Shown here: positions 4,984 through 39,092 of the stretch, piece after piece
Layout: each line of letters begins with the position of its first letter
How positions within the stretch are numbered: the first letter of the stretch is position 1
DNA from: a virus
Reading direction: 5' to 3' (one strand)
Virus record (IMG/VR): IMGVR_UViG_3300025867_000675
DNA: 41,247 nt
The notes under the pieces: model-generated
Databases searched by the model: none
What the model was told of the DNA's origin: nothing
Seen by the model: only the letters and a program-made list of their open reading frames with translations
Translations under genes and position numbers: made by a program

Positions 4984-5204
4984 TAGTGCTAGGAGCAAAA
5001 CAGAAATTGGATCCAGTTGCGTTGCGAAAGCGCAAGGCTTACGTTCAAACGCTTCTTGACGAACCTGCCAACAACGCTAGCCCATCAAGTCAGGAGTGGG
5101 TTTCGCCTGAATTCGCCGCAGGACACCGGTCAATCTTACTCGAAGAGATTGACGAGATCGATGCGCAGCTTAAAAAGCTGGCAAAAAAGCGCAAGAGAAA
5201 ATAG
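4980..5204 (+). CDS. small hypothetical protein with basic C-terminus
   Basis: ATGA overlap with upstream gene; stop lies in promoter UP element. Confidence 0.5.
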   Translation: MIVLGAKQKLDPVALRKRKAYVQTLLDEPANNASPSSQEWVSPEFAAGHRSILLEEIDEIDAQLKKLAKKRKRK

Positions 5205-5251
5205 TTGCAAATAAATGTTTACAAATATCCGTAGCGTGATATAGTACGGGT
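5197..5251 (+). promoter_or_regulatory. strong sigma70-type promoter copy 1 (UP element aaaatagttgcaaataaa, -35 TTTACA 5218-5223, 16-nt spacer, TGaTATAGT -10 5240-5245)
   Basis: One of five near-identical copies; ATG of next gene 6 nt after -10 (leaderless). Confidence 0.8.
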
Positions 5252-5674
5252 ATGAACGACATCCGAACGTTTAACTTCTTCAAGGGCGGTAACGCCACGT
5301 TTACTGTCACAAACGCGGAAGGTGAGCATTACACCTTCAAGATTCGCAAACCCAGCGAGTCGAAACCGTTTTACGCGAGTCTCGTTGATGGTCTTGGAAG
5401 CAACGGTCGGTTCAACTACATTGGGGTGTTCAATCCCACCAAGGTCGCTTCAAAGACCGAAGTTGTCAAGCTTACGCAGAAAAGCCGCTTCGCAGAATCT
5501 TCAAGGCAGGTTACGGTTTTGCGCTGGGCGCTGCGCGTTATCGCTTTCAACTGGCACCTTCCTGAAGGTTACGCCATCCAACACGTCGGTCGCTGCTGCT
5601 GCTGCGGTCGACGTCTAACTGACCCTGAATCAATCAACTCTGGCGTCGGTCCTGAATGCGCCAAACGCTTTTAG
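5252..5674 (+). CDS. hypothetical protein with C-terminal CCCCGRRLTDPESINSGVGPEC Cys-rich motif
   Basis: ORF track; leaderless start at promoter copy 1. Confidence 0.65.
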   Translation: MNDIRTFNFFKGGNATFTVTNAEGEHYTFKIRKPSESKPFYASLVDGLGSNGRFNYIGVFNPTKVASKTEVVKLTQKSRFAESSRQVTVLRWALRVIAFNWHLPEGYAIQHVGRCCCCGRRLTDPESINSGVGPECAKRF

Positions 5675-5675
5675 T

Positions 5676-5822
5676 ATGGGACTCACTCGCATCAACATTC
5701 CAGCGGAAGAGAAACCGCGGAAAGAACAGAAACCACAGAAACCAAAACAAGAGGAAAATTTGCTTGAAGAGTTCGCTGGTTCAGTCCACGTAATGGACGT
5801 TGACGAATGCGGACAATGGTAA
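5676..5822 (+). CDS. small K/E/P-rich hypothetical protein (48 aa)
   Basis: ATG 2 nt after upstream stop; repeat agaaacc x3 encodes KPQKPK. Confidence 0.3.
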   Translation: MGLTRINIPAEEKPRKEQKPQKPKQEENLLEEFAGSVHVMDVDECGQW

Positions 5823-5828
5823 CAATTT

Positions 5829-6251
5829 ATGAACATGAACATGAACGCTGAAGCACTCGCTGCACTGACTGCATTGCGCAAAACTGTCGTTGGTCCGATT
5901 ACAGATGACCAGCTTCCAGAGCCGTTCAAGGCTTACTGGACGGATCAGATTCCGAATCGCAAGCATTTGGATCGCCCATGGAAGTTTTATCTCGTCGATG
6001 GAGAGCTTTACATTGAAGACACCGAGGTCGACGATAACGAGGACTGCTTGCTGATGCACTGGACGACAACGTGCTGCTGCGGAGTTCAGATCTTCATGCG
6101 CAACAGCGGAATTTCCGTCAACCTGGAAGTGCCGACGTTCGTCCGTAAAAATGGCGAATATCTCTTTTACGCTGTCAGCGACGCGGAAAACTACGAGACT
6201 GGCATTAAGTCTCCCATCGACGGAAGATACTTCACGGTCCACTCAGGCTAG
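5829..6251 (+). CDS. hypothetical protein
   Basis: ORF track. Confidence 0.55.
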   Translation: MNMNMNAEALAALTALRKTVVGPITDDQLPEPFKAYWTDQIPNRKHLDRPWKFYLVDGELYIEDTEVDDNEDCLLMHWTTTCCCGVQIFMRNSGISVNLEVPTFVRKNGEYLFYAVSDAENYETGIKSPIDGRYFTVHSG

Positions 6252-38104: not shown

Positions 38105-38109
38105 CGAAC

Positions 38110-38985
38110 ATGAAGACCATACTGTGCATCGATGGTGGTGGGATGAAGGGACTCATTCCCACCACGTTTCTCGCAAAGCTTGAAGACACGCAAGGAAAGC
38201 CATGCTACGAGATCTTTGACCTAGTTGCTGGCACATCTGTCGGAGGAATCGTTGCGGCGCTGATCGCGAGTGGAAACACCGCTGCGCAGGCGCTTCACTT
38301 TTTCGACAAGGACGGTACAGACATCTTCAAAAAGAAGCAGTTCATGTCGCTGGACGGGATGTTCAGACCGCGCTACGGCGCCGACAAGATCGAGAAGTGC
38401 CTGAAAGCGCGGTTGGGTGACAACCTGATGAGCAGCGCGAAGATTCCGCTGCTTATCACATCGTTCGACCTGGCGGCGTATGACCCATTCTTCTTCAGGT
38501 CTTACGGAAGTGGAATGTACTACAAGATGTGGGAAGCTTGCCGCGCAACATCCGCAGCGCAGAGCTACTTCCCTGCTTTCAAGCTGACGAATAAAATTCT
38601 GTGGGATGGCGGAAGCGTTTGCAATAACCCGTCGCTAGTTGCGCTATCAGACGCCATCAGCATCTGGGGTAAGGGTGAGGGCTACCGCATCTTGTCGCTT
38701 GGGTGCGGCCAGACGTCAAGCAAGTTCGATCCTGCTTCGATGGCAAACGCTGGTGCCTTGAAAGTTGCGCTTGAAACGGTGTCGCTTATGATTGAAGCGA
38801 ACGACGACCTCCCAACAACTGTTCTCAGCCAGCTGATGGGGAGCAACTACATCCGCGTTCAACCAGAATGCACAGACTTCTCGCTCGATTCTGCCAGTAA
38901 AGAAGACATCGAGAAGCTCAAAGCTGCAGGGGAGGAATGCGCCCGTCTAAACACGGACGTCATTAAGCAGTTCTCAACGAAATAG
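38110..38985 (+). CDS. patatin-like phospholipase
   Basis: DGGGMKG oxyanion motif, GTSVG nucleophile elbow, WDGG catalytic Asp motif. Confidence 0.8.
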   Translation: MKTILCIDGGGMKGLIPTTFLAKLEDTQGKPCYEIFDLVAGTSVGGIVAALIASGNTAAQALHFFDKDGTDIFKKKQFMSLDGMFRPRYGADKIEKCLKARLGDNLMSSAKIPLLITSFDLAAYDPFFFRSYGSGMYYKMWEACRATSAAQSYFPAFKLTNKILWDGGSVCNNPSLVALSDAISIWGKGEGYRILSLGCGQTSSKFDPASMANAGALKVALETVSLMIEANDDLPTTVLSQLMGSNYIRVQPECTDFSLDSASKEDIEKLKAAGEECARLNTDVIKQFSTK

Positions 38986-39002
38986 GATTAGGTTATTGGT
39001 CA

Positions 39003-39031
39003 AGCCCGAGGCAAAACACCTCGGGCTTTTT
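39003..39031 (+). terminator. rho-independent terminator
   Basis: agcccgagg-caaaaca-cctcgggct + TTTTT. Confidence 0.8.
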
Positions 39032-39038
39032 AGTCTCA

Positions 39039-39092
39039 AAAATAGTTGCAAATAAATGTTTACAAATTTTAGTTTCGTGATATAGTGCCATC
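39039..39092 (+). promoter_or_regulatory. promoter copy 5 (-35 TTTACA 39059-39064; TGaTATAGT, -10 39081-39086)
   Basis: ATG 6 nt after -10. Confidence 0.8.

Follow-up and report, generated by a model that had tools for sequence, protein, structure and literature searches.

The mRNA made from the lambda PRM promoter for cI is leaderless, the start of this sigma-70 promoter being the A of the AUG, and leaderless expression was reportedly described by Sevostyanova in 2007 for Thermus phages such as phiYS40. The early promoters of phage T4 carry a -35 consensus of the GTTTAC type. They have been called "uber" promoters, which combine an upstream promoter (UP) element, a -35, a TGn and a -10 with extra consensus positions, and which out-compete the promoters of the host (Hinton 2010, PMC2988021). 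In Deinococcus, a -10 element placed 6-7 bp before the open reading frame (ORF) gives leaderless mRNA (PMC12340547). Among jumbo phages, the early promoter of the AR9 virion polymerase reads AAATATATATTAT-N6-G (PMC5312081), and phiKZ makes no leaderless transcripts (PMC8244752). Here we describe a stretch of viral DNA of 41,247 nucleotides (nt), IMG/VR record IMGVR_UViG_3300025867_000675 (the whole of which we call the window), that carries five copies of a 48-bp cassette with the layout of a promoter. We read these cassettes, with a probability of roughly 0.65, as one class of very strong sigma-70-type promoters that would be wired for leaderless first cistrons.

A first-pass annotation of the window had listed five such cassettes. 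The string GTTTACA-N13-TGATATAGT occurs in five copies, all on the + strand, against 0 expected by chance. The pattern GTTTACANNTNTNNGTNNNNTGATATAGT, allowed up to three mismatches, also has exactly five matches in the window (5217, 23054, 28347, 33922 and 39058, all +), compared with 0.00 in shuffled sequence. The same five copies make up the top family of a repeat finder, and they are the sole sigma-70 matches in the window that agree at 10 of the 12 hexamer positions and have a TG before the -10. Against a profile of 15 copies, ten of them from outside the window, they score 43-49 bits, and the rest of both strands scores at most 8 bits. Pattern search, repeat finder and profile thus confirm all five copies where the annotation had put them.

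Every copy consists of an A/T-rich block at -54 to -36, a TTTACA -35 hexamer, a 16-nt spacer and an extended -10, TGnTATAGT, just as had been described from the first look at the sequence (Table 1). In four of the five the upstream block reads AAAATAGTTGCAAA(T/A)AA(A/G)TG, and in copy 3 its TAGTTGCAAA half is replaced by the running-in of the preceding ORF. The stop codon of the upstream gene was said to fall inside the UP element in four cases, and in copies 1-4 it does lie within the cassette (TAG 5202-5204, TAA 23033-23035, TAA 28342-28344 and TAG 33907-33909).

We found that the distance from the cassette to the start codon is nearly fixed. An ATG lies 6, 6, 9 and 6 nt past the -10 in copies 1, 2, 3 and 5, respectively, which bears out the 6-9 nt first reported for four copies; copy 4 is without a nearby ATG. 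When all 15 copies are taken together, the ATG is exactly 6 nt past TATAGT in ten (binomial P ~6e-16); one copy has it at 7 nt and two have it at 9 nt, and all 13 of these nearby starts are ATG. One copy outside the window has a 49-nt leader, which is A/U- and C/A-rich and has no Shine-Dalgarno sequence. No TANNNT hexamer was found 5-8 nt upstream of the other gene starts of the window. The seventh base past the -10 is the canonical position of transcription start, so that with a 6-nt discriminator this position is the A of the ATG. From this geometry, the mRNAs of cassette-driven first cistrons should be leaderless. The proposal that the cassettes are promoters of leaderless mRNAs is thus supported by all that sequence analysis can test.

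The ORFs that open at the cassette ATGs have 71-326 amino acids (aa) in 11 of the 13 cases and 13-14 aa in the other two (those of L026 and L036; handles beginning with L denote loci outside the window). No pair of the downstream proteins shares BLASTP similarity. Homologues of the DUF6011 protein behind copy 1 (Sinorhizobium, Rhizobium phages) align with it from residue 2, which indicates that the copy-1 ATG is the true start, and gene calls made independently in other assemblies begin the 140-aa and 120-aa products at the same ATGs. Six cassette-driven genes, whose proteins are otherwise unrelated, have their first 12 nt in common, ATG(A/G)T(T/C)(A/G)(C/T)GAA(A/C), which translate to M-I/V-T/A/V-N/K. 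Either the promoter moved together with the first four codons, or selection acts on the initial transcribed and translated sequence.

Table 1. Coordinates of the cassettes, their first cistrons and other features; positions are those of the window unless a locus handle is given.
Feature	Position	Strand	Details
Cassette 1 (-54 to -7)	5198..5245	+	upstream block AAAATAGTTGCAAATAAATG; -35 TTTACA 5218-5223; TG 5237-5238; -10 TATAGT 5240-5245
Predicted start site, cassette 1	5252	+	A of ATG
First cistron, cassette 1	5252..5674	+	140 aa, DUF6011; ATG 6 nt past -10; independent gene call gives the same product
Cassette 2	23035..23082	+	-35 23055-23060; -10 23077-23082; predicted start site 23089
First cistron, cassette 2	23089..23346	+	85 aa, begins MVTK; ATG 6 nt past -10
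Cassette 3, truncated upstream	28338..28375	+	stop of ORF 27472-28344 inside; -35 28348-28353; -10 28370-28375
ATG of cassette 3	28385	+	9 nt past -10; predicted leader 2-4 nt
First cistron, cassette 3	28385..29299	+	304 aa, no family match
Cassette 4	33903..33950	+	-35 33923-33928; -10 33945-33950; predicted start ~33957; no ATG after
tRNA-like RNA, ~100 nt	33959-34058	+	starts 2-3 nt past the predicted start of cassette 4 (~33957)
Intrinsic terminator	39002..39028	+	10-bp stem, 7 G-C pairs, T run; 10 nt upstream of cassette 5
Cassette 5	39039..39086	+	-35 39059-39064; -10 39081-39086; predicted start site 39093
First cistron, cassette 5	39093..39455	+	120 aa, begins MITN; ATG 6 nt past -10; independent gene call gives the same product
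Genes with common 12-nt start	39093-39104; 23089-23100; L001 5536-5547; L002 12061-12072; L026 and L028 copies		
Examples of junction motifs	5820-5831; 6412-6423; 10175-10186; 34770-34781; 39726-39737; 14946-14961; 21517-21532; 35972-35989		
Strong intrinsic terminator, 12-bp stem	3749..3778	+	after the vault-protein-like genes; the only other strong one in the window besides 39002..39028
tRNA-CUA	L049 7312-7386; also L050 4379-4453 and L028 5374-5448	L049 +; L028 -	~0.9 kb downstream of a cassette

The window corresponds to positions 1926-43172 of the ENA contig ERZ795026 NODE_110 (89,777 bp), and several lines of protein identity place it in a larger genome. Its protein resembling the major vault protein is 100% identical to a database protein that is also encoded on a contig of 222,710 bp. 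When IMG/VR and JGI metagenome contigs were scanned for the pattern, the cassette turned up in three related samples, on contigs 65.5, 49, 38, 25.8, 21, 19.9, 7 and a few kb long. The phage is present in JGI samples 3300009692, 3300009694 and 3300025858 and in ENA ERZ795026 and ERZ27257423. Exact copies of the proteins P0121 (from the 65.5-kb contig) and P0122, a DNA ligase (from the 38-kb contig), again lead to the same 222,710-bp contig. Because proteins of the window, the 65.5-kb contig and the 38-kb contig all occur on this one contig, the cassette-bearing contigs are taken to be pieces of one genome, and by this evidence the window belongs to a jumbo phage whose genome has at least 222.7 kb. 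About 60% of that genome was open to inspection, and about 40% is unseen. The alternative that the cassette contigs are distinct relatives, which would make the cassette conserved across phages, had seemed to follow from the cassette being the only DNA that they share with the window, together with a single similar protein pair at 35% identity; it was rejected on the same exact matches to a single contig.

The motif search over the rest of the genome, which the first-pass annotation had proposed, added ten canonical copies and one degenerate copy. The parts seen therefore hold 15 distinct canonical copies (the five in the window included), so that the genome has at least 15; one of the additional copies precedes the window start by 637 bp. 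Every copy is read in the direction of the genes and is found where two genes meet. TTTACA (a 5/6 match to TTGACA) is present in all 15, as are TATAGT (5/6 to TATAAT), the 16-nt spacer and the TG at -15/-14. The upstream block AAAATAGTTGCAAAWAAR at -54 to -37 is found in 12 of the 15, with at least one change in L027 and L028 and with coding sequence overwriting window copy 3.

We then compared the cassette with its flanks. Mean pairwise identity among the 15 copies is 87% from -54 to -7, and it is 26% from -104 to -55, 31% in the discriminator (-6 to -1), 47% from +1 to +12 and 26% from +13 to +40. At spacer positions -19 and -18, as in the discriminator, the bases are fully random. Since the flanks and the discriminator have diverged to this extent, the copies are old enough to have randomised at neutral positions, with the cassette itself kept. 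The conservation takes in the expected polymerase contacts, much of the spacer, and those positions of the upstream block that hold G or C. Weak variants are absent, and neither degenerate cassettes nor leaderless promoters with a -10 only were found at other gene starts of the window. The degenerate copy, GTTTACA-N13-CGCTATATT at L001 5933-5961 (+), is without the upstream block and has its ATG exactly 6 nt past the -10; it is situated 430 bp downstream of a canonical copy.

Outside this genome, a scan of 185,579 species genomes returned only chance matches or ordinary promoters without the upstream TAGTTGCAAA half (Paenibacillus, clostridia and others), and these gave no lead to a host or a prophage. 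A relative with ~50% LigA identity, L047, has no cassette, and an ordinary TTGACG-17-TAGAGT site is found upstream of its ligA. We also noted in L047 (JGI 3300068442, a 221-kb contig), at ~14900-20400, dense repeats with tRNA T-arm and acceptor-CCA features (seen by the repeat finder only), which are interspersed with PDDEXK, PAS and response-regulator genes. Two further viral contigs, L005 (IMGVR_UViG_3300029319_004764) and L006 (IMGVR_UViG_3300025141_001474), carry on the - strand GTTTACATTTTTTT..TGATATAGT followed 5 nt later by ATG or GTG. These contigs have 41% G+C and show no sign of kinship to this phage, and they may represent a similar leaderless design in another phage group.

Shine-Dalgarno sequences are scarce. 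A 4-nt Shine-Dalgarno core at -18 to -4 precedes 15 of the 72 modelled genes, compared with a background of 12.7% at random positions. Gene junctions are tight, with 39 of 72 at 10 nt or less, and many of them are ATGA overlaps or contain the motifs TAATTTATG or GTAGTTAG..ATG. The junction motifs TAATTTATG and (C)GTAGTTAG(C/G)(G/C)C..ATG recur throughout the window (Table 1). Together with the few Shine-Dalgarno sequences, they suggest stereotyped junctions of termination and reinitiation. A coherent inference is that first cistrons would be read as leaderless mRNAs and later cistrons by coupling or reinitiation.

How does the cassette compare with the described systems? The likeness to T4 early promoters that was remarked on in the first-pass annotation is apt, and T4 early promoters are the closest known class. 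Both are present in many copies per genome that are read along the genes they serve, and both have an A/T-rich UP region, a TGn-extended and near-consensus -10, and additional conserved positions of the kind described for T4 (PMC2988021). They differ in that T4 mRNAs have leaders and ribosome-binding sites, whereas the cassettes put the ATG at the predicted start; in that the cassette spacer is 16 nt; and in that the cassette copies vary far less, without weak variants. With the leaderless genes of Deinococcus-Thermus, the cassettes share a -10 hexamer 6-7 bp before the start codon, an AUG at or next to the (here predicted) 5' end and the lack of a Shine-Dalgarno sequence. However, promoters of that group mostly lack a -35, whereas the cassettes have the full UP/-35/TGn/-10 set; only operon-first genes behind a cassette have the leaderless geometry here; and the leadered genes of that group use strong Shine-Dalgarno sequences, of which this genome has almost none. 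The lambda PRM-cI case differs in being a single regulated promoter rather than a genome-wide family.

If the cassettes are sigma-70-type promoters, we envisage that the alpha subunits of the polymerase would contact the A/T-rich block at -54 to -36, sigma region 4 would bind GTTTACA, and sigma regions 3 and 2 would bind TGnTATAGT across the 16-nt spacer. Transcription would begin 7 nt past the -10, in most copies at the A of the ATG. The operon-first mRNA would then have neither a 5' leader nor a Shine-Dalgarno sequence, and ribosomes would start on its 5'-terminal AUG, while the genes that follow, whose starts touch or overlap the stop codon before them, would depend on coupling or reinitiation for their translation. 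From one of the copies, cassette 4, a tRNA-like RNA would be launched and not an mRNA. In this scheme we infer the start site, the use of the host primary-sigma holoenzyme, an early or pre-replicative timing and the manner in which the mRNAs are translated. A two-part layout that includes TGn favours the primary-sigma holoenzyme. As for timing, the genes downstream of cassettes encode small proteins without known function, a Lar-like neighbour and a DNA ligase, and a 10-kb block of structural-type genes (T4 gp13-like and others) has no cassette. The predicted terminator just upstream of cassette 5 closes the operon that precedes it. This gene content, the cassette-free structural block and the terminator fit an early or pre-replicative class but are no proof of it.

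Several observations weigh against host sigma-70 promoters. The family is all-or-none, with nothing scoring between 8 and 42 bits on either strand of the window, and the spacer is almost invariant (AWTTTCCGT..CG), which the contacts of a sigma-70 holoenzyme normally do not demand. The cassette-driven genes include a DNA ligase, so that "early" may prove to be "early plus middle". In Bacteroidota, a Shine-Dalgarno-poor phylum, the main sigma factor reads different motifs, and if the host were of this kind a canonical -35/-10 promoter would need a phage factor. The behaviour of the cassettes also recalls that of promoters for the virion polymerases of phiKZ-like jumbo phages, which are long, A/T-rich and nearly invariant, start 6 nt past the motif and do not tolerate single changes (PMC5312081). 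The cassettes could instead be promoters for phage-specific machinery, such as an RNA polymerase (of the virion or not), a sigma factor or a protein that appropriates sigma, with the 48-bp consensus as its recognition site; the leaderless geometry would still apply. The all-or-none distribution and the likeness to virion-polymerase promoters speak for this idea, as do the near-invariance of the spacer and that of the upstream TAGTTGCAAA (almost a palindrome, with its centre near -45) and the absence of the cassette from the ~50% LigA-identity relatives and the species genomes scanned. On the other hand, the arrangement of -35, 16 nt and TGn/-10 is a signature of the sigma-70 family, unlike the known virion-polymerase motifs, which are single blocks with no -35 or spacer, and AR9 transcripts have 5' untranslated regions of 26-491 nt. 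A promoter of the phiKZ-like kind would call for split beta/beta' multisubunit RNA polymerases encoded by the phage. In the part of this genome that was inspected we found no phage polymerase: a six-frame scan of the accessible loci gave no DFDGD catalytic motif, the large proteins scanned and the precomputed annotations gave no Pfam match to a polymerase or sigma factor, and three large proteins of no known function had no polymerase relative in a sequence search of the PDB. These negatives apply to the ~60% of the genome seen, and because the remaining ~40% could hold such a gene, phage-specific machinery, though unlikely, keeps a real minority share.

A compatible addition to the sigma-70 promoter reading is that the cassettes, though used by the host polymerase, also carry a site for a phage or host regulator (repressor or activator) over the upstream block or the spacer, which would explain both the extra conservation and a joint switching on and off. 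We consider this possible, if somewhat doubtful. TAGTTGCAAATA is an 89% palindrome, an imperfect dyad TTGCAAA(T)-N5-(G)TTTACAA (read by eye from copies 1-5) overlaps the -35, and sigma-70 recognition is not known to use the conserved spacer positions; T4 early promoters, for their part, are shut off in a coordinated way (PMC2988021). Yet these dyads, being short and rich in A/T, might occur in a UP element by chance, T4 early promoters have extra consensus positions with no known regulator, and no candidate regulator was found, the window proteins being without matches to DNA-binding families. A bolder combination, to which we give about as little credence as to phage machinery on its own, is a programme wholly free of Shine-Dalgarno sequences, in which a phage factor or modified polymerase would read the 48-bp promoter, every operon-first 5' end would be an AUG, later cistrons would be translated by termination-reinitiation, and the same promoter would launch the tRNA-like RNA, whose processing would leave the next gene with a near-leaderless mRNA too. 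Such a factor would explain the conserved spacer and upstream dyad. The transcriptome would then be leaderless in a systematic way, for the first time in a jumbo phage; the transcript maps of phiKZ and AR9 show no leaderless mRNA. It seems very improbable that the cassettes are not promoters at all but serve as sites of recombination or integration or as signals for packaging or replication, or that they are a small mobile element with a chance likeness to a promoter. They are indeed direct repeats of ~48 bp scattered over the genome, and some are mosaic (copy 5 has the spacer of the L032 copy and the upstream junction of the L026 copy), which suggests exchange, but all copies are co-oriented with genes at gene boundaries, keep a fixed 6-nt spacing to an ORF-opening ATG and have every consensus promoter element, and they are flanked by neither terminal inverted repeats nor target-site duplications. 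Hardly credible is an archaeal virus in which TTTACAAAT would be a TATA box with an upstream transcription factor B recognition element. Several archaeal lineages typically have leaderless first cistrons and few Shine-Dalgarno sequences, and an A/T-rich box does lie at -34 to -26. This box, however, is 3-4 nt further upstream than a TATA box of archaea should be, the invariant TGATATAGT at -15 to -7, 16 nt from the -35 hexamer, fits bacterial sigma-70, and the phage encodes a bacterial-type NAD-dependent LigA, a family A DNA polymerase, RecA and a T4 gp13-like protein, with DnaB in a relative.

Cassette 4 is followed by the tRNA-like RNA instead of an ATG. In this RNA an acceptor stem of 8 bp is combined with a D stem of 6 bp, whose loop is 4 nt, and with a T arm, CGGG UUCGAGU CCCG; a long hairpin with a GAAA-containing loop, a 37-nt insertion, stands in place of the anticodon arm, and no CCA is encoded. 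Its minimum-free-energy fold has an acceptor-type stem, a D-type hairpin and the long hairpin (z-score -1.57), and the canonical T arm appears only in the alignment to the Rfam family tRNA-Sec, RF01852. That family is the best Rfam match, at 23.4 bits (E 0.012) against a gathering score of 47, and ARAGORN with all its options called no tRNA here. Given the lack of an ARAGORN match, the score below gathering and the replacement of the anticodon arm, and with it of a 7-nt anticodon loop, we classify the RNA as tRNA-like only. Its hairpin contains GGAGGGATGAACTGA, which reads as a Shine-Dalgarno sequence, an ATG, one codon and a stop. The ATG of the next gene (34068) is 9 nt past the 3' end of the acceptor stem, so that RNase Z-type processing would leave a near-leaderless mRNA for this gene, a possibility that we offer as speculation.

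All plausible genes of the window are on the + strand, and G+C is ~55%. The window has no tRNA and no Rfam match at the gathering score. Megablast of 20 kb of the window against GenBank phages found nothing close in DNA, tblastn with the 705-aa protein gave no match, and no relatives of the patatin protein were found in viral contigs. Most window proteins are without a family, the exceptions being SPFH, the pair resembling the major vault protein, GH39-like, patatin, Lar-like and DUF6011 proteins. Homologues of the vault-like protein are encoded on contigs of 200-540 kb, including the huge-phage records LR756500/1, and by protein affinity there is a weak leaning towards phages of Alphaproteobacteria and towards huge phages that were binned with assorted metagenome-assembled genomes. 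The parts of the genome seen also encode a tRNA-CUA beside the replication and structural proteins named above.

The vault-like gene itself is divided. An SPFH/Band-7 gene (56-1177, +) is followed by ORFs at 1234-2631 and ~2625-3722 (+; 465 and ~364 aa), which overlap by a few bases in different frames. Homologues are mostly single proteins of 805-814 aa, and some other huge-phage contigs also carry versions of ~410-466 aa; the division may reflect a frameshift, a programmed event or two genuinely separate genes. Elsewhere, at 8772-8824 (+), three copies of (T/C)CCTACCGG(T/C)TT occur within 53 nt, in a gap of 514 nt (8564-9077) that is the longest apparently non-coding stretch of the window. 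With a one-mismatch match at 1839-1850, the window has four of them, compared with 0.28 expected, and they could be iterons or a protein-binding array. The tRNA with anticodon CUA, an amber suppressor that ARAGORN labels tRNA-Pyl, raised the idea of TAG recoding, which was set aside on finding TAG to be the ordinary stop in 18 of the 73 window genes; late genes may still recode stop codons.

Phages are already known to have strong, conserved promoters and, likewise, leaderless mRNAs, and nothing here overturns what has been described. What is new is their combination: a nearly invariant 48-bp cassette held at a fixed 6 nt from the AUG, in a jumbo phage with almost no Shine-Dalgarno sequences. 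If transcript mapping confirms the predicted starts, nature would have supplied, in this phage, a system that uses a single very strong promoter to make leaderless mRNAs at the head of at least 15 operons. The cassette would also offer a ready motif for marking operon starts in the annotation of this phage group. It would provide a way to study leaderless initiation and reinitiation that carry a whole 220-kb programme, the cassette would be a compact promoter part that needs no 5' untranslated region, and the arrangement would give a clue to the translation habits of the host.

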